Positions 1 through 15,861 of a stretch of 17,179 nucleotides of DNA are shown here, in pieces; the first letter of the stretch is position 1; every line of letters begins with the position of its first letter. A model generated the notes under the pieces. That model ran no database searches. It was not told where the DNA came from and saw nothing but the letters and a program-made list of their open reading frames with translations. A program made the position numbers and the translations under genes. The stretch is from a virus (taxonomy: Duplodnaviria > Heunggongvirae > Uroviricota > Caudoviricetes): the IMG/VR virus record IMGVR_UViG_2537562215_000014; one strand, written 5' to 3'.

Positions 1-1224
1 GTGGCACGGACAACACGTCCTCTGACCAACACTGAAATTCTGCGGACTAAAGCTTTAGAGAAGGATCTAACACTGCATGATGGCGAGGGGCTTTTCCTGA
101 TAGTGAAAACAAACGGGAAAAAACTCTGGCGTTTCCGTTATCAACGTCCAACAACAAAACAGCGAACAATGATGGGGCTTGGTGCCTTCCCTGCCTTATC
201 GCTTGGTGATGCCCGAAGGTTAAGGGCTGAATACCTTTCCTTATTAGCCAATGGAATTGACCCGCAAATACAAGCTGAAGTTGCAGAGGAGCAGCAGAAA
301 ATCGTGCTTAACAGTATTTTTTCAGCGGTCGCCTCTAACTGGTTCTTGCTCAAAAGCAAAAGTGTTACTCCTGATTACGCAAAGGATATTTGGCGCTCAT
401 TGGAAAAAGACGTACTCCCTGCTATTGGCGAGATCCCCGTTCAGCAAATCAAAGCCCGAACACTAGTTGAAGCACTTGAACCAATCAAAGCTCGCGGAGC
501 ACTGGAAACAGTTCGTCGCCTAGTACAACGTATTAACGAAATAATGATTTATGCGATTAACACTGGTTTGATTGATACTAATCCAGCATCAGGCATTGGT
601 ATGGCTTTTGAAAAACCCAAAAAGCAAAACATGCCAACACTGCGGCCTGAAGAGTTACCTAAGCTGATGCGTTCTTTAGCTATGTCAAATCTTTCTATTC
701 CAACTCGCTGTCTAATTGAATGGCAACTCCTGACACTTGTACGCCCATCTGAAGCTGCCGGTGCTCGATGGGTAGAGATCGATCTTGAAACAAAACTATG
801 GACAATTCCCGCAGAACGGATGAAAGCCAAGCGTGAGCACATTGTTCCTTTATCACCACAAGCGTTAAATATACTCGATGTTATGAAGCCAATTAGTGGC
901 CACCGAGAATTCATTTTTCCCAGCAGATGTGACCCGAAGAAGTCAATGAACAGTCAAACGGCGAATGCTGCTTTGAAACGGATAGGTTATGGAGGTAAAC
1001 TGGTTGCCCATGGAATGCGCTCAATAGCCAGCACGGCAATGAATGAATTTGGATTCAACCCAGATGTAATTGAAGCTGCACTTGCTCATATTGATAAAAA
1101 TGAAGTTCGACGCGCGTACAACCGCTCAGTTTATCTTACTCAGCGTAAAGAATTGATGGAATGGTGGGGGGAACAATGTGTTTCGCAATTCTCATCTATT
1201 AGAAATAAGTGGCCCGTCTCCTAA
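1..1224 (+). CDS. int: P4-family tyrosine integrase (CP4-57/IntA-like); begins with GTG at window base 1, so the true start may lie upstream
   Basis: 407-aa ORF. N-terminal arm-binding pattern LHDGEGLFLIVKTNGKKLWRFRY; C-terminal catalytic region RPSEAAGARW ... HGMRSIASTAM ... RRAYNRSVYL (Arg, His-x-x-Arg, Tyr). N-terminus MARTTRPLTNTEI closely resembles my recollection of E. coli IntA. Sits at the element end, reading inward. Confidence 0.92.
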   Translation: MARTTRPLTNTEILRTKALEKDLTLHDGEGLFLIVKTNGKKLWRFRYQRPTTKQRTMMGLGAFPALSLGDARRLRAEYLSLLANGIDPQIQAEVAEEQQKIVLNSIFSAVASNWFLLKSKSVTPDYAKDIWRSLEKDVLPAIGEIPVQQIKARTLVEALEPIKARGALETVRRLVQRINEIMIYAINTGLIDTNPASGIGMAFEKPKKQNMPTLRPEELPKLMRSLAMSNLSIPTRCLIEWQLLTLVRPSEAAGARWVEIDLETKLWTIPAERMKAKREHIVPLSPQALNILDVMKPISGHREFIFPSRCDPKKSMNSQTANAALKRIGYGGKLVAHGMRSIASTAMNEFGFNPDVIEAALAHIDKNEVRRAYNRSVYLTQRKELMEWWGEQCVSQFSSIRNKWPVS

Positions 1225-1267
1225 TTTGGTAGTTTTGTTCATTTGAGATACATAGCAAGGATTTGAA

Positions 1268-2371
1268 ATGTACATTCAAGATATTCCTAAAGATTCAAAA
1301 TTTTGGGTTGTTCGATCTGGTGATGGCGGTATGTTTTATGACCACTTTGTGCACAACTCCATAGCAGCTATTGGGCACATTGACGCTATGGAATTTAGCG
1401 ATCAGACCCTCAGTAATAAAGATGAAGTGATTAAACTCGTTTATAATTACAAACAAACTTTGCTTGAAAAAAAGGAAACACTTGCATCTGCATCTAATAA
1501 AGCAGGCCAAGTTCTACGTTTCATTAATGAAATGTCAGTCGGTGATATAATTATAACTCTAGATGCAAGGAGAATAGTGGTCGGCAGGATCATATCTGGT
1601 CCTTATAAAGATATGGAAAATGTAACATTACTCAATGTTGATGGAACAACAGATGAAAAATTGCTTAAATTTACCCTTAGACGTAAAGTTGAATGGGGAA
1701 AAACGCAGTTTCGTGACAAACTTCCATTAGCCATAAATAATAGTTTCAGGGCTAATCAAACTGTTTTCTCAGCAAACGAGCACTGGAAAGAGCTTAATCA
1801 CTGGTTATCTGTTGCATTTATATCAGATAATGAAGCTTATATTTCCTCACGGATTGAGCAAACAGAAGGGATTAACAATCTTGACATTGCTCAATACTCC
1901 ATAATAATAAATAAAATTGAAGCTATTGCTCAAACAATCGCTAACAATGACAACTATCATTTCGATGATGATAAATTATTATCTCTCTTTGAAGATACAT
2001 ATAAAGAACTAAGAAAAAGTAGAACATTTACGGTAACGACACAACAGGTATTTCTTTCACCAGGAGATCTTTGGGCAAAAATATCTGGAAGCCGTAAAAA
2101 AAGCCTGTTAGTTATCTGCACATTTCTTATAATGTTCAATATTGAGCCATCTTTCGCAGATGAAAATGACAAAATATTTTTCGACAACAACTATGAAGCA
2201 ATATCTTTATTAATTAATAAAGTAAAACATGATGAAAACTTTGAGGAAGTAAAAAATGGATTAGCATTAAAAGTTCCTGCACAAAAACTAAACACAAAAA
2301 ACACCTCTACAAACCCCAATAAAAAACGCTATGATGATGATGTAGAACCAGACGACTTTGAAGGCATTTAA
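1268..2371 (+). CDS. hypothetical protein, cargo gene A (367 aa, soluble, acidic C-terminal tail); no family assignable by eye
   Basis: ATG at 1268 preceded by AAGGA (1256..1260, 7-nt spacing). Long uninterrupted ORF in visibly AT-rich DNA, where chance ORFs are rare. Starts 43 nt after the int stop. No Walker A, HNH or GS..DxD motif seen. Confidence 0.85.
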   Translation: MYIQDIPKDSKFWVVRSGDGGMFYDHFVHNSIAAIGHIDAMEFSDQTLSNKDEVIKLVYNYKQTLLEKKETLASASNKAGQVLRFINEMSVGDIIITLDARRIVVGRIISGPYKDMENVTLLNVDGTTDEKLLKFTLRRKVEWGKTQFRDKLPLAINNSFRANQTVFSANEHWKELNHWLSVAFISDNEAYISSRIEQTEGINNLDIAQYSIIINKIEAIAQTIANNDNYHFDDDKLLSLFEDTYKELRKSRTFTVTTQQVFLSPGDLWAKISGSRKKSLLVICTFLIMFNIEPSFADENDKIFFDNNYEAISLLINKVKHDENFEEVKNGLALKVPAQKLNTKNTSTNPNKKRYDDDVEPDDFEGI

Positions 2372-2375
2372 GAGG

Positions 2376-3029
2376 ATGATGAAGTTCATAAAAAAATGGT
2401 GGGATAACCATGATAAATCTAATAATTTTTTATCAGGTATCCATTACATCGTCATTTCGCTAGCTATCATAATTGGTGGCGCGTGGTCGTTGTATACCTT
2501 TGACGCATTACAAATGGCCAAAAATGCGGAAATCCAACTAAAAAAGGCTAACGAAGATTTAAAACAAATAAAAGAGCAAATTAAGGGCACTGACTCTAGC
2601 AGTATTGCTATTAATGTTATCCCGTTAAAAACACAGCTAGGAATGATTATTAATGTAACCATAAAAAATAACGGCAAACGACCATTATCCTTTGACACAT
2701 CCAAAGGAGCTTTAACTGTGTACAAAGTAAGCGCAAATGGCGATAAAGTTGAACAATCTCAATCTTTTACACCAAATCTCTATACATCTTTGAGAGATAA
2801 AAAACACTATCCAGAATCAAAAAGTAAATCATTATCAAAGACACATGTTTTAATAGGAGCAGAAAAAACCCTTAGCTATATTGTTGGATTAAATAAGCCA
2901 GGCGTTTATTATATTACATTTAGGTCAACACCAGATGATAATTTTGACACAGAAGAATTGAAAAACAAAAAACCTGTAGAATGGTTCGCTTCTTCATATG
3001 TTGAAATTACCCCACAAAAATATAAATAA
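2376..3029 (+). CDS. hypothetical bitopic membrane protein, cargo gene B (~217 aa; track ORF starts at TTG 2358, ATG 2376 or 2379 more likely)
   Basis: ATG 4 nt after the gene A stop (TAA 2369..2371), with AAGAGG at 2370..2375. Basic N-terminus MMKFIKKWWDNHDK, one hydrophobic helix LSGIHYIVISLAIIIGGAWSLYTF (about nt 2430..2498), then a charged heptad-like segment and a beta-rich C-terminal domain. AT-rich like gene A. Confidence 0.8.
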   Translation: MMKFIKKWWDNHDKSNNFLSGIHYIVISLAIIIGGAWSLYTFDALQMAKNAEIQLKKANEDLKQIKEQIKGTDSSSIAINVIPLKTQLGMIINVTIKNNGKRPLSFDTSKGALTVYKVSANGDKVEQSQSFTPNLYTSLRDKKHYPESKSKSLSKTHVLIGAEKTLSYIVGLNKPGVYYITFRSTPDDNFDTEELKNKKPVEWFASSYVEITPQKYK

Positions 3030-3335
3030 AAAAAATAAGAAGCACACAAATGTTTTTATAGCCTAAAAAACCGCCACAATATTTAACAGCCACATTAAAA
3101 CACATGCATTATGTTAATGCATTAAATGAAATTAATCCTCCATCCACTCCGTAAAAATAACACTATCATAAACACATCAATAGAGTCATCCAAAACACAA
3201 AAATAACTTTAACTCAATAATATTAAACATTCCCCTTTCTAATCACTACTCTAACTTATTGTCGTAGATGAAGCGAGCAAACTCAATTGCGCTCTCAGAC
3301 TTTGAAAAAATTGAACACATCAACATTTGCGCGCA

Positions 3336-3354
3336 GTGCTTTCCCCGCCTCGCC
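3336..3354 (-). other. cos site: P2/P4-type 19-nt cohesive end (GGCGAGGCGGGGAAAGCAC on the minus strand)
   Basis: Plus strand reads GTGCTTTCCCCGCCTCGCC, the exact reverse complement of the P2/P4 cohesive-end 19-mer as I recall it. It lies downstream of psu, as in P4, inside a GC-rich block (3330..3500). Confidence 0.65.
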
Positions 3355-3518
3355 CGCCCGCTTTGCAGGGCGGTTTTAATGCAGTTGCACTGACACGCTC
3401 AGGCCGCGCCGGGAATGGCGTGTTTTGTTGATAATGGGGCGGGAAAACGCATGCAAAGTCATGCACCTTATCGATGCATGGCTTTTTTCAGTAAAAACAA
3501 GCGGGTTTTCGGGGAATT

Positions 3519-4091
3519 TTACACAGACTGACGTGATGCCAGTTGCGCACTTTTACGCGAAAAAATCATGTTCTGCGCAGGGGTGAATTTTTCACGGCAG
3601 TCATCCACCGAAGCCGCGTCAGGCCTGAATCCGATGGTCGTTAAAATGTCGCTATCCTGTGCGGAATAATTAATTTTTTCCCCCTTCGCAAGCCAGGACA
3701 GAAGGGCTTCACGCAAGGCATCTGTGGCACGCTGTATGGCACAGTTTCGGGCAATGGCCGTCAGTTCACTGTAGCCCATCAGCTCCGGTGCCAGTGCGGC
3801 CGCCAGTACTGTGCCGTGCTGCTGCATAAAATCATTCAGCCGGTCGCGGATGCTGATGTGCTGAACGGCTTCATGCGAACGAATATAACGACCGGCGGCC
3901 TGATTCACCTGCCATTTTCTGACTTCGATAATATTGCGTAATTCGTCCAGGCGACTGACGTTTCTGCCTTCTCCTGACAGAAGCCGCAGGTATTCCTGTT
4001 CGGCCGCTGCCAGCTCATTTTTGCGTTGCAGCCATGCTGCTTTGTTATTCTGACAGGTGTCAAAGGCCTGCTGTAAGGCTGTGCTTTCCAT
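3519..4091 (-). CDS. psu: Psu, polarity suppression / capsid decoration protein (Rho antagonist)
   Basis: 190 aa, the same length as P4 Psu. N-terminus MESTALQQAFDTCQNNKAAWLQRK matches my recollection of P4 Psu. Last gene of the sid-delta-psu operon. Confidence 0.88.
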   Translation of the reverse strand: MESTALQQAFDTCQNNKAAWLQRKNELAAAEQEYLRLLSGEGRNVSRLDELRNIIEVRKWQVNQAAGRYIRSHEAVQHISIRDRLNDFMQQHGTVLAAALAPELMGYSELTAIARNCAIQRATDALREALLSWLAKGEKINYSAQDSDILTTIGFRPDAASVDDCREKFTPAQNMIFSRKSAQLASRQSV

Positions 4092-4164
4092 CGTTATCTC
4101 TTTCTCATCATGCTGAAGAATAAAAATACGGTGTGCGGCGACGGCTGGTGTTAACCGGCAGCCC

Positions 4165-4665
4165 TCATTCCAGACGCAGCGAATATGATTGTGTTTTTAA
4201 CCGTACTGGCGGCAGTTCCTGTTTTTCATGCAGGCTTTCTGCCAGTTCGTCCGGTGTGACCGGGCGGACAATGAAGCGGTTGATGGTCTGAAGCGTTTTA
4301 AACACCAGACCACAGCCCGGATCCGTGCACACATAAAAACGCTCGGTGACTTCCTGAGACAGACGCCGCGATGTTCTTGACAGTGCAAGGCCTTTACATC
4401 TCCGACAACAATATCCGGTAACAAGCATTCTTTTCGGGCGTTTCATACTGCCGGAGGCTGACGTCAGTGAATCGCGGTATCTCTGTTTGCCTGAAATGTA
4501 TTCCATTCCTGAATCTTTACTGTCAGAGAAAAAGCTTTCACTCGCTTCAAATGTCGCAGAGCAATAAATATTCCGGCACTGTGCAATCATTATCTTGGTG
4601 CCATCGTCCATGAAATGTGCGCGGCGGGTGTGAGCAACATGTCCACACGACGGGCAGTAAATCAT
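4165..4665 (-). CDS. delta: Delta, late-gene transactivator (tandem Ogr-like zinc-finger modules)
   Basis: 166 aa (P4 Delta is 166 aa). Two Ogr-type Cys motifs: CPSCGH...CRNIYCSATF and CCRRCKG...CTDPGCGLVF. Start codon overlaps the sid stop (ATGA at 4662..4665). Confidence 0.88.
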   Translation of the reverse strand: MIYCPSCGHVAHTRRAHFMDDGTKIMIAQCRNIYCSATFEASESFFSDSKDSGMEYISGKQRYRDSLTSASGSMKRPKRMLVTGYCCRRCKGLALSRTSRRLSQEVTERFYVCTDPGCGLVFKTLQTINRFIVRPVTPDELAESLHEKQELPPVRLKTQSYSLRLE

Positions 4666-5396
4666 GACAGCAGTCCTCTGGCCTTAAGCTCTGCTCCCTG
4701 CTGGTCTATTTTGTCCTGCCACACCTTGCGCTGTGCCGGTGTGCCTGCCACCTCATAATCCATGTGCGGAAGTGTTGCCGCTGACAGTCCGGTCAGCCGG
4801 AGAACCGGCTCGCCGCTGAGGCTGATTTGCATCTGTTTAATTTTCTGTTCCAGCGATGATTTCACCTGCTGCATGACAGCCTTATCGGGTGCGACGTAGC
4901 CCTGATGGCCGGTGGTGTTGGCGAGCGGATTTTCCTGTACCAGAATGCTCAGATGCATTGCCCGGACAAGCGCCTCACAGGTTTCATTCAGGGCGTGTTC
5001 CAGCTCATGCTCTGCATACAGACTCAGAAGGTGATGATGTGCCTTCCGGTAGGCGGTGGCCGTGCTGTCACACGCCCCTTTCAGGCGTTCACGTTCAAAA
5101 TTCAGCACCACGGCCAGATTGTCATATTCCTGTACCAGCTCCCGGCGTGCCACGCGCTCAATGTGGCGCTGTTTCAGCTCGTCGCTCAGGACACCACCGG
5201 CTGCACGAAAGGATGTGCGCCAGTCATCAGCGTCATTTCCGTCGGCCTGCGCCAGCGCATTTTTTTCCTGCTCTGCCCGTTCAATGGCCGTGACGGTCTC
5301 ATCCATCAGTCGGGCGTTCTCAAGGTGGGCGGCTCTGGCCTTTTCCAGTTGTGCCAGTGCGGGTTGCAGATATTCAGGGATGGTGTTGTCAGACAT
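4662..5396 (-). CDS. sid: Sid, external capsid size-determination scaffold protein
   Basis: Track ORF starts at GTG 5414. ATG at 5396 gives 244 aa (P4 Sid is 244 aa) and has GAGGAG 8 nt upstream. Alpha-helical, Ala/Glu/Leu-rich composition. First gene downstream of the late-promoter dyad. Confidence 0.85.
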   Translation of the reverse strand: MSDNTIPEYLQPALAQLEKARAAHLENARLMDETVTAIERAEQEKNALAQADGNDADDWRTSFRAAGGVLSDELKQRHIERVARRELVQEYDNLAVVLNFERERLKGACDSTATAYRKAHHHLLSLYAEHELEHALNETCEALVRAMHLSILVQENPLANTTGHQGYVAPDKAVMQQVKSSLEQKIKQMQISLSGEPVLRLTGLSAATLPHMDYEVAGTPAQRKVWQDKIDQQGAELKARGLLS

Positions 5397-5468
5397 TTTC
5401 CGGCTCCTCGTCACTTCAGGTTAAGAAAATTGTGACGTACACCGGACAACAACACGACGCATTGCAGA

Positions 5469-5486
5469 TGTGCCAGCCCTGACACA
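5469..5486 (-). promoter_or_regulatory. Psid late promoter activator site (Ogr/Delta-type TGT-N12-ACA dyad)
   Basis: TGT GCCAGCCCTGAC ACA. Centre is ~55 bp upstream of the inferred sid transcription start (~5420), matching P2/P4 late-promoter architecture. Confidence 0.6.
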
Positions 5487-5565
5487 GGAGACTCATCCTC
5501 AGACCGGCAAGCCAGGAAAAGGTCGCAGGAAAAACCGGCTTACTGTTTGTTTTTTTATATTTTAC

Positions 5566-5669
5566 TGTTCACCTCTGTTCACCATAAGAAAAAAGATAAG
5601 TAATACAGTAAGTTAAAGGGTGAATAATCGCAGTAATGACTGTTCACCGTCTGTTCACCACTGTTCACC
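5566..5669. repeat. Replication-origin-like iteron cluster: five direct TGTTCACC octamers plus one degenerate inverted copy
   Basis: TGTTCACC at 5566, 5576, 5641, 5652 and 5662; GGTGAATA at 5618. P4 alpha binds type I iterons of this sequence. Lies about 4.8 kb from the crr repeats. Confidence 0.65.
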
Positions 5670-5828
5670 CGTTGATGGGCTTTTTGTGCTGTTTATTACT
5701 GTTTGTTTTTATTAATTCGCCGGGAATGAATAAGAAAAAACGATTTGTATTTCACTATAAAAATTACGAATTGCTTTAAGTGGCTTTAAATGACTTTAAG
5801 TGGAGATGAACAAAAAATACACAAGCAT

Positions 5829-5846
5829 TGTAAGGCTGCCGGAACA
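5829..5846 (+). promoter_or_regulatory. PLL-like late leftward promoter activator site (TGT-N12-ACA dyad)
   Basis: TGT AAGGCTGCCGGA ACA. Placing the start ~55 bp downstream (~5892) puts it ~396 bp upstream of the PLE-like start (~6288), close to the ~400 bp spacing I recall for P4 PLL/PLE. Confidence 0.5.
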
Positions 5847-5948
5847 AATCCCCCCTGTTGCGTCTGCCAAAAATATTCACAAAATAAAGCGCTACCCGAA
5901 GCCGGACGGACTTATCCGGTGCTGTATGGACATTAACGAGGTAGCCCG

Positions 5949-6215
5949 ATGCAAGCTGTTTTTTCTTCCCCGTCTCCCGCCCCTGTGACGCCACTGATGC
6001 CGCTGCCGGACATCACGCAGGAGCGTTTTTTACGTCTGCCGGAAGTGATGCACCTGTGCGGCCTGTCACGCTCGACAATCTATGAACTCATCCGTAAGGG
6101 GGAATTTCCGCCGCAGGTGAGTCTTGGCGGTAAAAATGTGGCCTGGCTGCACTCTGAAGTCACCGCATGGATGGCCGGGCGCATTGCCGGACGCAAACGG
6201 GGGTATGACGCATGA
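5949..6215 (+). CDS. vis: Vis/AlpA-family helix-turn-helix regulator (excisionase-like)
   Basis: 88 aa. Motif [47 protein letters not shown] is typical of AlpA/Vis. GAGG lies 9 nt upstream of the ATG. First gene after the PLL-like site. Confidence 0.85.
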
Positions 6216-6250
6216 TGATGCCCGCTCTGCAAAAACTCCCTTTTTCTGGC

Positions 6251-6280
6251 TTGCCTTTTTCCGGCATTTGCGGATATAGT
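6251..6280 (+). promoter_or_regulatory. PLE-like sigma70 promoter (-35 TTGCCT, 18-bp spacer, -10 TATAGT)
   Basis: Hexamers at 6251..6256 and 6275..6280, immediately downstream of vis, where P4 PLE is expected. Confidence 0.5.
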
Positions 6281-6343
6281 CTTTCCGTTGCCGCAAAATC
6301 GGCAGCCGGGCGTGAGAACCCGTGTAACTCGAAGGCGACATAT

Positions 6344-6365
6344 GACGCGCCATGCGTCTTTTTTT
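6344..6365 (+). terminator. Short hairpin followed by U7 in the PLE leader (candidate attenuator / immunity terminator)
   Basis: GACGCG-CCA-TGCGTC (6-bp stem including one G-U) followed by TTTTTTT at 6359..6365, ~60 nt downstream of the predicted PLE start. Confidence 0.35.
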
Positions 6366-6604
6366 GTGTCGCAATCAACGCCACAGAGCGCCAGATTATG
6401 GTGTGGCGTGTGGTTTGCCGTGCAGGTATGATCCTGTTCGCAATCGCATGTTATGCCACTGAGTCAATGGTAGCTCAGGCGGGGCAGCCTCCGGGCTGGC
6501 CGGTATTCTTCGAGGCCGGTATTCTCACCCCCGTCTGGGCTATCGCCATCGAGCGTGAGAACTCCGGCGATAGCAGTTATTTGCTACTCGAAGGAGGCTG
6601 CCTT

Positions 6605-6802
6605 ATGGCTACAACCCTTACCCCCTCACACCCTGAATTTGTCTTTGTGTTTGCGGCTGTCCGTCGCGCAGACCGTCATCCCCGTATCTGTATGCTTCGC
6701 ACCGTCGCCGGTGATGAACGCAGTGCCCGCCGTTCCTTTGTCCGTGACTATGTGCTCTCCCTTGCTGCCCGTCTGCCGGTGGTGGAGGTGTCCCGTGCGT
6801 AA
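6605..6802 (+). CDS. small hypothetical protein of the left operon (65 aa)
   Basis: ATG at 6605 with AAGGAGG (6591..6597, 7-nt spacing). Its stop overlaps the next gene's start, suggesting translational coupling. Confidence 0.55.
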
Positions 6803-7082
6803 TAAAAAAGCCCCTCAGACCGTCTCAGCGCGTCATGACGCCTGTGAACACCTCAGCATTGAGGCTTACCATAAGCTCAACCGCGCCAGCGCCGTATCCC
6901 AGTTTGTTGGGGGTGATTTGATTCACCGTGAACTCTCCGGCCTGCATCAGCTCTACATTCCGCATATTTTCAGCTACCTGAATGAAGATATTGATTTTGT
7001 GCTGAATGAGCTGAAAGCCAAAGGCCTGTGCCGCGATTTTCTCGCCCAGCAGAAAGACCGGGGAGACAGGACGCATGTTTGA
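6795..7082 (+). CDS. small protein (~95 aa) at the position of P4 epsilon; function inferred from position only
   Basis: GTG at 6795 with GGAGGTG 4 nt upstream. The stop overlaps the start of the 151-aa ORF (7075). The track ORF is longer (starts 6555), but the SD supports the 6795 start. Confidence 0.5.
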
Positions 7083-7530
7083 TTTTCCCCAGCCCGGTGA
7101 GATTTACCGTTCTGCCGGTTTTCCCGATGTGGCCGTGGTCGGCATTCTGGAAGACGGTATTCCGTGGGAAATGCCGTACCGCTGCCCGGACATTGTCTGG
7201 AACCCGTACCGCCGTAAATTCAGTATCCTTGTGCGTATCCTCGCCGACGGGCGCACCACAGACATCCCGCTGGGGCGTTTTCTGCGGGAATTTACCTGTG
7301 ACCGTCCTGACCTGTTTAAACGCAGCCCCGTAAACCGGCATGCGGTACTGAAAGAAATGGCCGGAGACCCGGAATTACAGAAATGGCGGGAGAAATATCT
7401 GGATATTTACCCGCAGGACCCTGTTCCGGTCAGCCGGGCGGCACCGGTGGCGCGGGAATGGCGGGAAATTCCCCGCACGGAGCCTGACCCGGAAATCACC
7501 CCGGATAACAGTTACCGCAATTATCTGTAA
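7075..7530 (+). CDS. hypothetical protein (151 aa; same length and position as P4 orf151)
   Basis: ATG at 7075 with GGGAGA upstream. Codon usage matches the backbone; co-oriented in the alpha operon. Confidence 0.75.
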   Translation: MFDFPQPGEIYRSAGFPDVAVVGILEDGIPWEMPYRCPDIVWNPYRRKFSILVRILADGRTTDIPLGRFLREFTCDRPDLFKRSPVNRHAVLKEMAGDPELQKWREKYLDIYPQDPVPVSRAAPVAREWREIPRTEPDPEITPDNSYRNYL

Positions 7531-7665
7531 TTAAAAAACGACACCCGAAAAATTAAATGTGCGTATTCGCGCAGGGATACGCACGTCTTCAGGAGACGCA
7601 GATATGCCTTATCAGTTAATGCAACCGGCACGGAATGCAGTCATCTGTCACAGGGAGGAAAGCAA

Positions 7666-7986
7666 ATGAAAACACCCTTACCGCCCGTCTTACGCGCAGC
7701 CCTTTACCGTCGTGCTGTCGCCTGTGCCTGGCTGACCGTGTGCGAACGTCAGCACCGCTACCCGCATCTCACCCTTGAATCACTGGAGGCGGCCATCGCC
7801 GCTGAGCTGGAGGGCTTTTATCTGCGCCAGCACGGTGAGGAAAAAGGGCGTCAGATAGCCTGTGCCCTGCTGGAAGATTTAATGGAATCCGGCCCCCTGA
7901 AGGCCGCGCCGTCGCTGTCCTTTCTCGGGCTGGTTGTGATGGATGAACTCTGTGCCCGTCACATAAAAGCGCCGGTACTGCACTGA
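7666..7986 (+). CDS. hypothetical protein (106 aa; same length and position as P4 orf106)
   Basis: ATG at 7666 with GGGAGG 7 nt upstream. Lies immediately upstream of alpha. Confidence 0.75.
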
Positions 7987-8000
7987 AGGAGAACAACACC

Positions 8001-10334
8001 ATGAAAATGAACGTAACCGCCACCGTCAGCCATGCGCTCGGCCACTGGCCGCGTATTCTCCCGGCGCTGGGGATTCAGGTGCTGAAAAACCGTCATCAGC
8101 CCTGTCCGGTCTGTGGCGGGAGGGACCGCTTCCGTTTTGATGACAGGGAGGGGCGCGGCACCTGGTACTGCAATCAGTGTGGTGCCGGTGACGGCCTGAA
8201 ACTGGTTGAAAAGGTGTTTGGTGTTTCCCCGTCCGACGCGGCCGCAAAGGTGGCTGCCGTGACCGGCAGTCTGCCCCCGGCTGACCTGGCAGTGACGGCC
8301 GCCGCCGTTGCTGAAACAGACGCTGCCCGGAAGAACGCCGCCGCACTGGCACAAACCCTGATGGCAAAAACCCGTCCCGGAACCGGTAACGCCTACCTGA
8401 CCCGCAAGGGCTTTCCCGGCCGGGAATGCCGGATGCTGACCGGCACACACAGAGCCGGTGGCGTGAGCTGGCGCGCCGGTGACCTTGTGGTGCCACTGTA
8501 TGACGACAGCGGCGAACTGGTTAACCTTCAGTTAATCAGTGCTGACGGCCGTAAGCGCACCCTGAAAGGCGGACAGGTCAGGGGCACCTGTCACATCCTT
8601 GAAGGACAGAATCAGACCGGAAAACGTCTGTGGATAGCGGAGGGATACGCGACCGCACTTACCGTACATCACCTGACCGGTGAAACGGTGATGGTGGCGC
8701 TTTCTTCCGTGAACCTCCTTTCTCTGGCCAGCCTTGCCCGGCAGAAGCATCCGGCCTGTCAGATTGTCCTTGCCGCTGACCGTGACCTCAGCGGTGACGG
8801 CCAGAAAAAAGCCGCCGCAGCCGCAGATGCGTGTGAAGGTGTTGTTGCACTGCCGCCGGTCTTCGGTGACTGGAATGATGCCTTCACGCAGTACGGCGGG
8901 GAAGCCACCCGTAAGGCCATTTATGATGCTATCCGGCCACCGGCTGAAAGCCCGTTCGACACCATGAGCGAAGCAGAGTTTTCCGCCATGAGTACCAGCG
9001 AAAAGGCCATGCGTATCTATGAGCATTACGGCGAGGCGCTCGCGGTTGATGCCAACGGCCAGCTTCTGTCCCGTTATGAAAATGGTGTCTGGAAGGTGCT
9101 GCCGCCACAGGACTTTGCCCGGGATGTGGCCGGGCTGTTTCAGCGTCTGCGCGCGCCGTTCTCCTCCGGGAAGGTGGCCTCCGTGGTGGACACCCTGAAG
9201 CTGATTATTCCGCAGCAGGAAGCCCCCTCCCGCCGCCTGATTGGCTTTCGTAACGGCGTGCTCGACACGCAGAACGGCACGTTCCACCCGCACAGTCCGT
9301 CACACTGGATGCGTACCCTGTGCGATGTGGATTTCCCCCCGCCGGTGGAAGGGGAAACGCTGGAAACCCACGCCCCCGCGTTCTGGCGCTGGCTTGACCG
9401 TGCCGCCGGTGGCCGTGCGGAAAAACGCGACGTGATTCTGGCCGCACTGTTTATGGTGCTGGCAAACCGCTACGACTGGCAGCTCTTTCTGGAGGTGACC
9501 GGTCCCGGCGGCAGCGGCAAAAGTATCATGGCCGAAATAGCCACCCTGCTGGCCGGGGAGGATAACGCCACGTCGGCCACCATTGAGACGCTGGAATCCC
9601 CGCGTGAACGTGCCGCGTTAACTGGCTTCTCACTGATACGCCTGCCGGACCAGGAAAAATGGAGCGGCGACGGTGCCGGACTCAAGGCCATCACCGGCGG
9701 CGATGCGGTGTCCGTGGATCCGAAATACCGGGATGCGTACTCCACGCATATCCCGGCGGTGATTCTGGCCGTGAACAATAACCCGATGCGCTTCACCGAC
9801 CGCAGCGGCGGCGTGTCACGCCGGCGGGTGATTATTCACTTCCCGGAACAGATAGCCCCGCAGGAGCGCGACCCGCAGCTTAAGGACAAAATCACCCGCG
9901 AGCTGGCGGTCATCGTGCGTCACCTGATGCAGAAGTTCAGCGACCCGATGCTCGCCCGGTCACTGCTTCAGTCCCAGCAGAACTCAGACGAGGCGCTGAA
10001 CATCAAACGGGATGCCGACCCGACGTTTGATTTTATCGGCTATCTGGAAACCCTGCCGCAGACCAGCGGCATGTATATGGGGAACGCCAGTATCATCCCG
10101 CGTAATTACCGTAAATACCTCTATCACGCCTATCTGGCCTACATGGAGGCAAACGGCTACCGGAATGTACTCAGTCTGAAAATGTTCGGGCTGGGGCTGC
10201 CGGTGATGCTGAAGGAATACGGGCTGAATTACGAGAAGCGCCATACCAAACAGGGGATACAGACCAACCTGACGCTGAAAGAGGAAAGCTACGGCGACTG
10301 GCTGCCAAAATGTGACGACCCTGCAACAGCCTGA
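8001..10334 (+). CDS. alpha: Alpha: primase-helicase replication protein with origin binding (P4 alpha family)
   Basis: 777 aa, the same length as P4 alpha. N-terminal zinc motif CPVCGG...YCNQCG, TOPRIM-like EGYATAL and AADRD, Walker A GPGGSGKS (nt 9501..9524). AAGGAG RBS. Followed by TGTTCACC iterons. Confidence 0.92.
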   Translation: MKMNVTATVSHALGHWPRILPALGIQVLKNRHQPCPVCGGRDRFRFDDREGRGTWYCNQCGAGDGLKLVEKVFGVSPSDAAAKVAAVTGSLPPADLAVTAAAVAETDAARKNAAALAQTLMAKTRPGTGNAYLTRKGFPGRECRMLTGTHRAGGVSWRAGDLVVPLYDDSGELVNLQLISADGRKRTLKGGQVRGTCHILEGQNQTGKRLWIAEGYATALTVHHLTGETVMVALSSVNLLSLASLARQKHPACQIVLAADRDLSGDGQKKAAAAADACEGVVALPPVFGDWNDAFTQYGGEATRKAIYDAIRPPAESPFDTMSEAEFSAMSTSEKAMRIYEHYGEALAVDANGQLLSRYENGVWKVLPPQDFARDVAGLFQRLRAPFSSGKVASVVDTLKLIIPQQEAPSRRLIGFRNGVLDTQNGTFHPHSPSHWMRTLCDVDFPPPVEGETLETHAPAFWRWLDRAAGGRAEKRDVILAALFMVLANRYDWQLFLEVTGPGGSGKSIMAEIATLLAGEDNATSATIETLESPRERAALTGFSLIRLPDQEKWSGDGAGLKAITGGDAVSVDPKYRDAYSTHIPAVILAVNNNPMRFTDRSGGVSRRRVIIHFPEQIAPQERDPQLKDKITRELAVIVRHLMQKFSDPMLARSLLQSQQNSDEALNIKRDADPTFDFIGYLETLPQTSGMYMGNASIIPRNYRKYLYHAYLAYMEANGYRNVLSLKMFGLGLPVMLKEYGLNYEKRHTKQGIQTNLTLKEESYGDWLPKCDDPATA

Positions 10335-10341
10335 CCCACCT

Positions 10342-10365
10342 GACCGGCATCTGCCGGTCTTTTTT
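10342..10365 (+). terminator. rho-independent terminator of the alpha operon
   Basis: GACCGGC-ATCT-GCCGGTC stem-loop followed by TTTTTTT, 8 nt after the alpha stop. Confidence 0.7.
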
Positions 10366-10380
10366 TATCCCGACATCCCC

Positions 10381-10685
10381 CGAAGGTGAACAATCCACTG
10401 TTCACCCTTCACCGTATATTCACCCGTTATCACACTGAAATTAAAAGAGAAAAACGAAAGGTGAACAGTGTGAACAATCAAATCAAAAAAAACTTTTTTC
10501 TTCCTGAGTGATTTCAGTACGGGGGATTAATCACCGGTATGAGTCACACCGGCAGAATGCCGGAGGTGAAGAATCGAATGTTCACCCTTCACCCATTATT
10601 CACCACCTATCACTCTGAAATAAAAGGAGAAAAAAGAAAGGTGAACAGTGTGAACAGTTCTTTCGAAAAAAAATTTTTTTCCTGT
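10381..10685. repeat. crr-like cis replication region: two ~125-bp direct repeats (10381..10505 and 10561..10685), each with TGTTCACC/GGTGAACA iterons
   Basis: The two copies are near-identical at 180-bp periodicity. Each contains GGTGAA, TGTTCACC, TTCACC, and GGTGAACAGTGTGAACA followed by an A-run/T-run. Matches the P4 crr description (two ~120-bp repeats next to alpha). Confidence 0.7.
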
Positions 10686-10818
10686 ACGATATAGCATCAA
10701 TCCAAGTAAAAATGCGCTTTCATTTCACATTAACTTACAGCCATTGGTATACGATTAGGTATACGCACAAAAACTGAATTAAACAAAATCATTAAAAATC
10801 AAAGCAATACAATATTTA

Positions 10819-10840
10819 TTCAAACTCCGCCAGCCCACCA
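10819..10840 (+). other. candidate attR core (resembles the 3' end of ssrA/tmRNA, ending CCACCA)
   Basis: TTCAAACTCCGCCAGCCCACCA versus my recollection of the ssrA 3' end TTCAACTCCCGCCAGCTCCACCA (a similar but imperfect match by eye). No T-arm partner upstream, so it is a fragment, not a gene. Upstream are two direct GGTATACG copies (10746, 10758) that could be integrase arm sites. Confidence 0.35.
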
Positions 10841-10967
10841 ATCATGATTGGACGGTATAAGGACAACACCAATAAAAACAGGAAGTTAGCAGTCTCAGCA
10901 GGACACCGACCAGACGGTGAAGAGACATAAAAGGATACGCAAAGGAGCCGCGGCTCCTGGTGACATG

Positions 10968-10991
10968 AAAGCCCACAGATGTGGGCTTTTT
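10968..10991. terminator. hairpin terminator between the element and the autotransporter 3' end (possibly bidirectional)
   Basis: AAAGCCCAC-AGAT-GTGGGCTTT followed by TT on the plus strand; on the minus strand it lies 10 nt after the autotransporter stop (11001). Confidence 0.55.
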
Positions 10992-11000
10992 CGTTGATGG

Positions 11001-11372
11001 TCAGAACGACCAGTTCACACCAGCTACCCCGTTCCACGGGGATTCCACACCGGCACCATGGCTATACCCCACCCCAAGATGCCCGCTTAACGTACTGCTG
11101 AATGAGGCTTTAATACCTGCCTGGTATATTCCACGTCTGCCCGACAAATCATTGACGAAATTACCGTCACTATTCACTTTCACCCGGTTATCATCGACAA
11201 ATTCTTTGCGCACAGCCGCCTTCAGCCACGGCTCAACTTCCATACCGTTCCCCAGACGCATGTTGTAACTCAGCGTTGCACCCAGTTCACGATATAAACT
11301 GCGGGTATCGACTGATTTCGATTCCATGCCATTGGATAAATGATATTCAGGGTTATCAGCGATGAACCCCCG
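11001..11372 (-). pseudogene. autotransporter beta-barrel C-terminal segment, out of frame with the passenger segment (ends ...GVNWSF)
   Basis: C-terminal aromatic-x-Phe motif NWSF typical of type Va autotransporters. This frame is open back to the stop at 11373..11375; it is shifted relative to the 626-aa ORF at a C5 run (11367..11371). Confidence 0.75.
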
Positions 11373-13294
11373 TTAACGATGCATACGGCGTCAGGTTCCA
11401 GTTACCATCGGTAAATCGCATCCCGGTTTCAATGTGACCGCCCAGCCCGTTGCTGCGATAACTGCCGTTGGCGGCTCCACCGCTGCCAACCGTGGAGTCG
11501 CGAGCTTCGGTACCTGCTAATACCAATAAATTACCGCCATTTTCCAGCAACATATTGGTCGCTAAATTGCCGGAAATGGAAAAAGTGCCGTACTGGTGAG
11601 TACCGCTGATTTCAATACCGTTAGCCGTGCTCGTCTGGAGAGCGGCACCGCTGTTCTGGACGATATCTGTCGCTTTGCCATTATCGTTAACTGTCAGCGT
11701 ACCGCCTTCATTGATCTTTGTTTTTATTGCCTCTCCGTTAGCTGAAACTGTTTGTATTCCGCCGTCGTTAATCGTTGTCTCATTCGCCACCCCCTCGACG
11801 ATTTGTTCGCCGCCGGTGAGCGTCGTGCCTGTCGCAGTGGCTTTTGTTTTGACGATCTCCCGTCCGCCCGTATTGACCTGTGTTTTGTCAGAAGAGGTGT
11901 CTGACTCCATGGTTAACACGCCGCCATTTGCCAGCAGGATATTGTTCGCCGCACCCTGCTCGATGCTGAACGCGACGCCATCCGCGCGTGTTCCTGTGAC
12001 CCGCGTCGCCCTGGTGGTTGCAACCAAAGCGTCCTGGCTACTCTGCTGTATCCCCGTTGCGCTGCCTTTCTCCCGCACATCGAGTGTGCCGCCGTCATTA
12101 AGCACCGAGTTTTCAGCCAGACCGCCCTCATTAACTACCTGTGAACACCCATTAATAATGGAACCTTCCGCTGTCCCGTTTGCCATAATTTGTTGTAGGC
12201 CAGAGACGATATCGGTATTGATTGCCTTACCATAATTCTGAACGGTTTGCGTGCCACCATTGATGTGTGTTTTCTCTGTTGACCCACCATCAACAATTTG
12301 TTCACCACTTTCGATATTTGCCTCAGTGGCTAATCCATATACCGTTTGCTTGCCACCTTTGATATTTGCTTTATCAGAAGTGGCACTGGCATATATTGTT
12401 TGGGTGCCAGCACTATTGAGTACAGTGCCAACATCTTTTCCATAAACATCCATTTTGCCGTTGGCATTAATAATCGTATCAACTGCCCGGGAACCAGTGA
12501 CGACTGTTAATGAGCCAGCGTTTTCCAGCACTACATTTTTAGCTTCTGAATTCCTGATGTAGAAAGCATCACCATAACTGTTGGTTCCTTCGATAAGGGT
12601 TCCGGAAGTTGTGGAAGCAATTAATGCGCCGCCGGATTGTTGCTCAACATGCTTAGCCTCACCACCGTCCTGAACCTCCAGAACGCCACCATTATTAAGT
12701 CTGGTGGTATCTGTTTTAGCCTCCTTCTGGACAATCAGCTTACCGCCAGCATCAACGGTAGTATTTTTCGCCGAGGTTTTAGCCACTACCGTCAGTTCGC
12801 CGGTATTTTCCAGCACAACATAATTAGCCTCCCCTCCGGTAATAGTGAAGTGAGAGAGCTTGTTGTATCCTTCAATATCAGTCCCTGCGCCCGTGTTGGC
12901 AACTAAAGCACTGCCCGTCTCCTGGTTAACCCCATGTGCAATACCACCGGTATAGACAATCAGCGAGCCTCCGGCGCTAATATTGCTGCCAGTTGCCGTA
13001 CCATCTTTCTCAACAACCTGCCGGCTCCCGGAGGATATAATTGTCGTGTCAGCTTTCCCGCCGCTCTTGATATTTTGCGTTCCGCCGTTGATATTGGTAC
13101 CCGTGGCAATACCATGATTATTAATATTCTGTGTACCACCATTGATTATGGTATTGGTCGCGTTTCCGGTAACATCCATTACCCCGCCGTTATCTATTCG
13201 GGTCGCATCAGCTTTAGCATTCGTTAAAACTGACATTGTTCCTTTATCTTTAATAATCGTCTTGTTTGCCGAACCATATGCGTTTATGTCTAAA
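11356..13294 (-). pseudogene. AIDA-type autotransporter adhesin, passenger segment distal to the IS insertion
   Basis: 626-aa ORF rich in ~19-aa Gly/Thr/Asn passenger repeats (TTINGG, GGTQ, NVVLENAG). The reading frame continues seamlessly across the IS insertion point. Confidence 0.8.
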
Positions 13295-13302
13295 TGTAGT
13301 GG

Positions 13303-15523
<2,221 letters not shown>

Positions 15524-15861
15524 AAATTTCATCCTCTGAAAAGTGAATACTGAGTAGCGTTTAAGCGACCTTAGCTTTGCTGCAACATCAGCCCACAGGC
15601 ACCAGACCAGGGGATTCATCCTGAAGAGACAGCGCAAGTGTATTGTGTTCACCGCTCATCAAAGACATCATGATGAAATGATGATATTCCGCATAAGAAT
15701 GAGGCATTTTTTAAACGCAGTGCGCTGAAGTGTGGTTGGATAAAAAAGTCAATCCATTCAGGAAATACGGGCGTATTCTTTTCTTTCGACAATGAGGCCG
15801 TTGGCAAAATAAAATGATTTACATAATCGTTTCTGATGAATATCTTCTGCTCACATAAAAA

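Follow-up and report, generated by a model that had tools for sequence, protein, structure and literature searches.

We propose, with strong confidence, that the window (the whole stretch of 17,179 nucleotides that was analysed) carries an integrated and sequence-intact P4-type satellite prophage, organized as a mosaic of two blocks and inserted at the 3' end of ssrA, the tmRNA gene, with a length of 11,025 bp that, like the placement of attL and ssrA, is taken from a 99.95%-identical copy present in another strain. The segment 3325-10679 of the window corresponds to phage P4 as a single block of about 7.35 kb with 97.7% nucleotide identity (in megablast, window 3355-10679 against P4 4291-11624, 97.7%, the block extending through cos). 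This P4-matching part makes up two thirds of the element, and the other third is a different module with its own integrase, its own arm sites and a low-GC two-gene cargo. The replication, regulation and hijacking block is that of P4; what has been exchanged is the integration module, together with the cargo in the hotspot. An earlier note, made from the sequence, had assigned the element to the P4 family; the assignment is confirmed, though the label is too loose for an element of which two thirds is P4 itself. The modules follow one another as int, cos, psu-delta-sid, late-promoter dyads, ori iterons, vis, left operon, crr and attR, and every P4 hallmark that the note had listed was located in the order that it gave (Table 1).

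Table 1. Features of the satellite prophage, in window coordinates.
Feature	Coordinates	Strand	Evidence and remarks
Tyrosine integrase, 407 aa, GTG start	1..1224	+	Pfam Arm-DNA-bind_3, Phage_int_M, Phage_integrase
Cargo gene A, 367 aa, DUF8426 (PF28530)	1268..2371	+	N-terminal domain with EVE/YTH-like predicted fold
Cargo gene B, 217 aa, membrane protein	2376..3029	+	N-terminal hydrophobic helix, long helix, then Ig-like beta-sandwich
cos-left flank, resembling P2, not P4	3290..3335		82-84% identity to P2 records over window 3290-3396
cos, 19-nt cohesive-end sequence of P2/P4, GGCGAGGCGGGGAAAGCAC	3336..3354	-	Exact match; 0.01 expected by chance
psu, capsid decoration / Rho antagonist, 190 aa	3519..4091	-	Pfam Psu, 9.8e-89; 187/190 identical to P4 Psu
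delta, late-gene activator, 166 aa	4165..4665	-	Pfam Ogr_Delta, two stretches; 163/166 identical to P4
sid, capsid-size determination, 244 aa	4662..5396	-	240/244 identical to P4 Sid; PHROG 6165, 3e-115
TGT-N12-ACA dyad upstream of sid (Psid activator site)	5469..5486		Pattern match
ori	5566..5803		Six type I iterons GGTGAACA (5566-5669), three type II repeats (5774-5803); mapped from P4 annotation
TGT-N12-ACA dyad upstream of vis (PLL activator site)	5829..5846		Pattern match
vis, AlpA-family excisionase / regulator, 88 aa	5949..6215	+	Pfam Phage_AlpA, 7.3e-21; 87/88 identical to P4 ORF88
ORF of 196 aa, Ash / Icd-like, P4 kil-eta region	6212..6802	+	Pfam Phage_ASH; NCBIfam phage_ICD_like; PHROG 6928
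PLE-like promoter (6251-6280) and leader with immunity target seqA	6251..6364	+	Promoter/terminator scan; alignment to P4
CI immunity RNA, Rfam C4 family	6463..6550	+	RF01695, 74.3 bits (gathering score 45)
Immunity target seqC	6555..6594	+	GTGAGAA 6555-6561, TACTCGAAGG 6585-6594; alignments
epsilon, helper derepression, 95 aa	6795..7082	+	93/95 identical to P4; PHROG 10016
orf151	7075..7530	+	149/151 identical to P4
orf106 (DUF5375)	7666..7986	+	106/106 identical to P4; Pfam DUF5375
alpha, primase-helicase, 777 aa	8001..10334	+	767/777 identical to P4
t-alpha terminator	10342..10366	+	25/25 identical to P4
crr, two 120-bp direct repeats with type I iterons	10380..10679		Repeats 10380-10499 and 10560-10679 (repeat family D1)
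P arm of the attachment site (29% GC, unlike P4)	10680..10826		Arm-type repeat ATTGGTATACGATTAGGTATACG at 10743-10765
attR core, pseudo 3' end of ssrA, 14-mer CCGCCAGCCCACCA	10827..10840	+	Sequence; identical to K-12 psaA

At 97.7%, the identity to a laboratory phage is higher than is usual for a "P4-like" element, as it would be if laboratory P4 had contaminated the sample or if P4 and an ssrA island had been joined in a chimeric assembly. We regard such an artefact as extremely improbable, for the following reasons. First, the element differs from P4 at 171 places, including one 9-bp indel. Second, the same junctions recur in independent complete genomes, in two of them at full length and in 40 at 80% or more. 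Third, the crr-proximal P arm and attR are the same in 249 E. coli genomes. Fourth, the breakpoints are biologically sensible, one lying just past cos and the other on the outer edge of crr. Hence, we retain the reading of a natural mosaic of P4 and a distinct ssrA integration module.

No tRNA or tmRNA gene was found inside the window by ARAGORN; attL and ssrA fall outside it, and attL was for that reason taken from a near-identical genome. In this copy, from E. coli S1-INA-02-B (NZ_CP145662.1), the end of ssrA lies 184 nt to the left of the start of the integrase gene (window position 1), and attL is predicted to read CTCCCGCCAGCTCCACCA followed by CTTGCT. On the other side, the right flank of the window is the sequence found 3' of ssrA in the 2569 E. 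coli genomes, out of 5426, that show an empty site (attB junction), and homology to the chromosome of K-12 and to empty sites begins at the attR core. These two observations bear out the proposal of an ssrA attachment site just left of the window, while the suggested end at 10840 is exact, because the attR 14-mer stops there. From attL core to attR core, the element measures 11,025 bp as compared with 11,624 bp for P4, which agrees with the expectation of a P4-sized genome. The arm-type repeat ATTGGTATACGATTAGGTATACG, which also stands upstream of int in L001 (7928-7950), flanks the core on both sides.

The two cores are not alike, in that attR lacks one T, corresponding to T357 of ssrA, and one C as compared with attL. 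This difference could lower the efficiency of excision and makes it costly: as attR lacks T357, excision should leave an ssrA gene without U357, hence an inactive tmRNA, and the empty site expected afterwards, devoid of T357, is GCCAGCCCACCA. By analogy with CP4-57, whose excision is reported to delete T357 (PMC10107115) and has been shown to inactivate tmRNA, the departure of the element from the host chromosome should turn off tmRNA-mediated ribosome rescue. We also considered a crossover within the terminal CCACCA as the cause of the T-less attR; this was rejected on the grounds that the related satellite MCJCHV-1, which has the same P arm, possesses an attR with the T, and that CP4-57 excision is reported to delete T357 (PMC10107115).

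The integrase (HxxR motif at residue 337) scores 585 bits on NCBIfam PRK09692, above the cut-off of 434, over profile positions 1-392 of 413. It shares 247 of 417 residues (59%) with IntA of K-12 and 145 of 443 (33%) with the integrase of P4. Its resemblance to CP4-57 IntA, pointed out in the earlier note, thus stands at the level of the family but is limited to 59% identity with the K-12 protein. We assign it on its sequence to the CP4-57 IntA family, with a predicted specificity for ssrA.

Beside this module, the flanks of cos align to the cos regions of both P2 and P4; the homology to P4 stops about 11 bp past the cohesive end, and the left flank has GCTCAGAC..TGAAAAAAT in common with P2. 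Over 5390-5583, the identity to P4 is 100%. The PLL dyad keeps its TGT/ACA arms around a spacer unlike that of P4. In ori, all but one of the six type I iterons are identical to P4, as are the three type II repeats, and crr shows four differences from P4 in 300 bp, the P4 homology ending exactly at its outer edge. The eight P4 proteins Psu, Delta, Sid, Vis, Epsilon, ORF151, ORF106 (named Cnr in P4) and Alpha are all full length and 97.9-100% identical to their P4 counterparts, and the P4 genes show neither frameshifts nor internal stops. The claim of intactness, which a frameshift or truncation in alpha, sid, delta or psu would have overturned, is therefore upheld, cos, ori, crr and t-alpha being identical or nearly identical to P4. 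No catalytic or zinc motif is disrupted: Delta has two Ogr-type zinc fingers with both CxxC...CxxxxC sets, and Alpha combines Pfam Zn_Ribbon_Prim, Toprim_3, D5_N and Pox_D5 with the EGYATA and Walker A motifs. As compared with P4, Delta carries three substitutions, including C72G/G73S, and Alpha ten. Alpha is the last gene of the left operon (6212-10334), at the start of which the 196-aa ORF overlaps the CI RNA with its frame open.

Concerning immunity, the leader contains seqA as GTGAGAA (6312-6318) and AACTCGAAGG (6326-6335), closes with a terminator hairpin at 6344-6358, and scores above the gathering score of two Rfam families (c4-a1b1, 50.3 bits; isrK, 67 bits). The CI RNA, preceded by a 9-bp deletion relative to P4, presents the seqB loop TATTCTTCGAGG (6504-6515) and a second pairing segment, TTCTCAC (6522-6528), the loop being complementary to seqA and seqC. 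The immunity loop is UCUUCGAG (CUUCGAG) as compared with CCUGUGAA in P4, and both targets carry the matching changes. Thus, seqA, seqB and seqC are altered together with their complementarity kept, and four such types occur among seven elements. By its sequence, the RNA immunity is self-consistent and of a specificity unlike that of P4, so that, given these compensatory changes, the element should be heteroimmune to P4. A literature search on the seqB immunity of P4 found nothing. Two single-nucleotide indels relative to P4 (+1/-1, at 6575 and 6602) were considered as old sequencing errors in X51522, an explanation rejected since the P4 version also occurs in other E. coli elements.

The unlike att cores and the substitutions in Alpha and Delta, together with the frequent decay of P4-like elements into Type B and C sets (PMC8628076), could suggest a cryptic and immobile remnant like CP4-57 of K-12, complete in appearance but incapable of excision, replication or packaging. 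We consider this improbable: the core genes are free of stop codons and frameshifts, the motifs are preserved, the cis-acting sites are identical or nearly so to those of P4, and the three-way compensatory changes in the immunity system imply continued selection. Furthermore, CP4-57 itself remains capable of excision with the same imperfect att pair (PMC10107115). We thus favour an intact prophage that is probably functional, as the earlier note had suggested, assuming that Alpha and Delta work with their substitutions and that the new integrase and att sites work as a pair.

The cycle to be expected, with its CI RNA, Epsilon, Delta, Vis/Int, Alpha, Sid, Psu and cos, is that of P4. In the lysogen, the CI RNA would be processed from the PLE leader and pair with seqA and seqC on the nascent transcripts, terminating the left operon early. 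In the presence of a P2-like helper, Epsilon would derepress the helper and Delta/Ogr would switch on Psid and PLL by way of the TGT-N12-ACA dyads; the element would be excised by Vis and Int and replicated by Alpha from ori and crr. Sid would then force the helper capsid protein into small heads, to be decorated by Psu, and the helper terminase would cut cos. In this way, the element would be mobilized in small helper-made capsids, and its cargo could pass between strains with P2-like helpers.

The cargo pair (1268-3029) is low in GC and occupies the int-psu interval beside cos, a known hotspot of defence genes (PMC9122126). Gene B always adjoins gene A, and the two move jointly between mobile elements, being found in P4-like satellites (E. 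coli, Salmonella and Pectobacterium), at a moron site of a Providencia siphophage and in an Aeromonas islet. In E. coli, they occur in 2 of 5426 complete genomes. Gene A matches the profile of the PADLOC candidate PDC-S02 over residues 11-177 only (profile positions 3-155 of 324; E 2.7e-18). The pair has no named function in Pfam, NCBIfam or PHROGs, no match to PDB chains in sequence searches, and no counterpart among the validated systems that the main text of Rousset 2022 describes or those named in a 2026 preprint; a literature search on DUF8426 found nothing. The EVE/YTH-like fold is that of modified-base readers. We tentatively propose, at somewhat less than even chances, that the cargo is an undescribed two-gene anti-phage system, in which the EVE/YTH-like DUF8426 protein would be a candidate sensor and the Ig-like protein its membrane-anchored partner, mobile as a unit and spread here by P2-like helpers. 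It is a reasonable candidate for defence-system testing.

About 44% of E. coli isolates are reported to carry P4-like satellites, and the element is an ordinary member of this very common family. Seven P4 core components define the "Type A" satellites (PMC8628076), and the element has the integrase at one end, psu/delta/sid adjacent and intact, alpA/vis, epsilon, alpha and a P2-type cos, as well as ori and crr with alpha-binding iterons and an antisense-RNA immunity (CI RNA with seqA/seqC targets). It departs from phage P4 proper in the integrase and leuX-type attP and in immunity specificity. It is a clean and well-delimited case of the way P4 satellites evolve, by swapping three modules (integrase/att, immunity specificity and hotspot cargo) around a nearly invariant core.

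The earlier note had suggested alignments to P4 and CP4-57, and the element was compared with both. Like Enterobacteria phage P4 (X51522 / NC_001609), it runs from cos through crr in the same order and orientation. Unlike P4, whose target is leuX, it has a different integrase and replaced attP arms, and therefore targets ssrA; moreover, the gop-beta-cII genes of P4 are replaced by the DUF8426 cargo, and the left flank of cos is P2-like. With the CP4-57 cryptic prophage of E. coli K-12, it shares the attB at the 3' end of ssrA (core CCGCCAGC), the T357-less pseudo-ssrA at attR, the downstream gene ypjA and the integrase family PRK09692. However, CP4-57 is 22 kb long, is devoid of psu, delta, sid, cos, epsilon and a P4-type alpha, and has an integrase of only 59% identity with unrelated arm sequences. 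Finally, as in the Type A P4-like satellites (Moura de Sousa & Rocha 2021; Rousset et al. 2022), the seven core components stand in canonical order and a variable cargo lies between int and psu beside cos, the element being distinguished from them by a cargo that is rare in E. coli.

The element at positions 1-10840 is made up of three zones, as judged from an ORF map, Pfam scans and a composition profile: an integrase gene, a cargo gene pair and a block of P4-type genes (see the table). To the right of 10840 lie the chromosomal genes ypjA, an autotransporter gene with IS3-family transposase ORFs inside it, and then ypjB. The ypjA (EhaD) adhesin gene (11001-15652), downstream of attR, is split into several frames, and is also annotated as frameshifted in the genome of the twin element (E. 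coli S1-INA-02-B).

Using megablast against phage records, we found that 3355-10679 corresponds to P4 (X51522) 4291-11624 as one block of 97.7% identity. When the window was aligned directly with P4, we counted 171 differences; 9 bp are deleted after 6428, and there is a +1/-1 pair of indels. The homology in this alignment runs on past the cohesive end, as far as about 3325. P4 annotation was mapped onto the window for comparing sites and proteins. The crr region differs at 4 positions in 300 bp; t-alpha is identical (25/25), as are the three type II repeats and five of the six type I iterons of ori. The numbers of residues identical to P4 are as follows: Psu, 187/190; Delta, 163/166; Sid, 240/244; Vis, 87/88; Epsilon, 93/95; ORF151, 149/151; ORF106, 106/106; Alpha, 767/777. 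Delta retains its two zinc fingers intact, and Alpha its EGYATA and Walker A motifs. None of these eight proteins has an internal stop and cos is exact, which bears out the earlier note's proposal of an apparently intact P4-family satellite with the hallmark modules.

Features of the window and of the attachment site
Feature	Position	Strand	Remark
Integrase gene	1-1224
Two low-GC cargo genes	1268-3029		33% GC
P4-type block	~3325-10679		55% GC; Psu, Ogr/Delta, AlpA, Ash, DUF5375, 777-aa primase-helicase
cos, 19 nt	3336-3354		exact
TGT-N12-ACA dyad	5469-5486		upstream of sid
TGT-N12-ACA dyad	5829-5846		upstream of vis
Sigma-70-like promoter	6251-6280		position agrees with P4 early leader
Leader	6274-6364		matches c4-a1b1 and isrK models (Rfam)
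seqA	6312-6335		P4 TTCACAGG; window CTCGAAGG
Hairpin terminator	6344-6358		position agrees with P4 early leader
C4-family RNA (P4 CI RNA)	6463-6550		Rfam
seqB loop with second pairing segment	6504-6528		loop: P4 CCTGTGAA; window TCTTCGAG
seqC	6555-6594		P4 TTCACAGG; window CTCGAAGG
attL (twin element)			CTCCCGCCAGCTCCACCA, then CTTGCT
attR	10820-10845		TCAAACTCCGCCAGC-CCACCA, then ATCATG
rve (IS3-family transposase ORF within ypjA)	13549-14049	-
HTH_Tnp_1 (IS3-family transposase ORF within ypjA)	14169-14516	-

The attachment site is ssrA, as had been suspected, from the following lines of evidence. First, in NZ_CP145662.1, the best E. coli match (5 differences in 10,840 positions), the end of ssrA (296 bits with the Rfam tmRNA model) lies 184 nt upstream of the start of the integrase gene. 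Second, a synthetic empty-site query was contiguous in 2569 of the 5426 complete genomes, one of which reads CTCCCGCCAGCTCCACCAATCATG, where intact ssrA leads into the right flank of the window, so that the window itself belongs to the ssrA locus. The element measures 11,025 bp from core to core, with arm-type repeats (ATTGGTATACnnTTAGGTATACG) on its two sides, upstream of int and at 10743-10765; its P arm and attR junction also occur in 249 genomes.

The attR 14-mer (10827-10840), identical to the pseudogene psaA annotated in K-12, is a pseudo 3' end of ssrA without T357. Because attR keeps this T in strain MCJCHV-1, whose related satellite shares the P arm, we place the crossover to the left of T357, in CCGCCAGC, and regard the absent T as a property of this chromosome's displaced ssrA end. 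The attR of CP4-57, the K-12 cryptic prophage at ssrA, is the same; CP4-57 excision is reported to delete T357, removing the acceptor-stem G-U pair and thereby inactivating tmRNA, whereupon rescue switches to ArfA (PMC10107115). By analogy, excision of the satellite should leave an inactive tmRNA gene.

P4 homology stops at 10679, the exact outer edge of crr, and at 3325, about 11 bp past the cohesive end; between these points, via the att site, the int, cII, beta and gop genes of P4 are replaced. The integrase shares 33% identity with P4 Int and 59% with K-12 IntA, and passes NCBIfam PRK09692 (585 bits; cut-off 434), in keeping with the likeness to CP4-57 IntA noticed earlier. Since the flank just left of cos (3290-3335) is P2-like (GCTCAGAC..TGAAAAAAT) rather than P4-like, there are hints that the element recombined at cos, with either a P2-like phage or a different satellite as partner, and exchanged its hotspot in this way.

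The CI RNA region is the most diverged stretch of the P4 block. Its differences from P4 are coordinated and compensatory at seqB, the CI RNA loop, and at seqA and seqC, its pairing targets on the transcript, so that the element is predicted to be immune to itself but not to P4, a principle reportedly described for retronphage phiR73. Adding five E. coli elements to the alignment (seven in all) revealed four specificity types, in each of which seqB is complementary to both of its own targets; in one type the covariation extends to a second pairing segment, GTGAGAA/TTCTCAC. Of 5426 E. coli genomes, 87 have an exact copy of the window's 66-nt CI core. The indels relative to P4 (9 bp at 6428/6429; +1/-1 at 6575 and 6602) define two haplotypes of an ORF overlapping the CI RNA (196 and 199 aa), both open and both present in other E. 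coli elements. The isrK RNA is a Salmonella Hfq-binding sRNA; as its Rfam model matches the P4-type early leader (6287-6364, 67 bits), isrK here is apparently a homologous leader, that of a P4-like island, and not a separate RNA.

The cargo DNA is rare (2 of 5426 complete E. coli genomes). Gene A (367 aa; PF28530/DUF8426) has homologues in Salmonella, Pectobacterium, Pantoea, Providencia, Plesiomonas and Aeromonas, on contigs shared with homologues of gene B (217 aa), and the DUF8426 protein and its membrane/Ig-like partner form a conserved gene pair. This pair occurs in four kinds of settings: the int-psu interval of P4-like satellites in Salmonella; a P4-like element located at ssrA in Pectobacterium; the moron site of a Providencia siphophage, between the tail-chaperone and tape-measure genes; and a small Aeromonas islet. 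PADLOC matched only the N-terminal half of gene A (candidate PDC-S02). A putative defence role is plausible, because the int-psu location is a known defence hotspot (PMC9122126) and a 2026 preprint reports phage protection by six of eight unknown loci from the P4 hotspot.

Under the seven-component definition (PMC8628076), the element is a Type A P4-like satellite; the observation and the interpretation of the earlier note were both correct. About 44% of E. coli isolates are reported to carry P4-like satellites (PMC9122126), and at least 80% of this element is shared by 40 complete genomes. The element is one more of a well-known type, and only its cargo and its predicted ssrA-damaging excision merit experiments. 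It is nearer to P4 than most P4-like satellites are, but is not P4 itself, because its integrase/att module, immunity specificity and cargo all differ.
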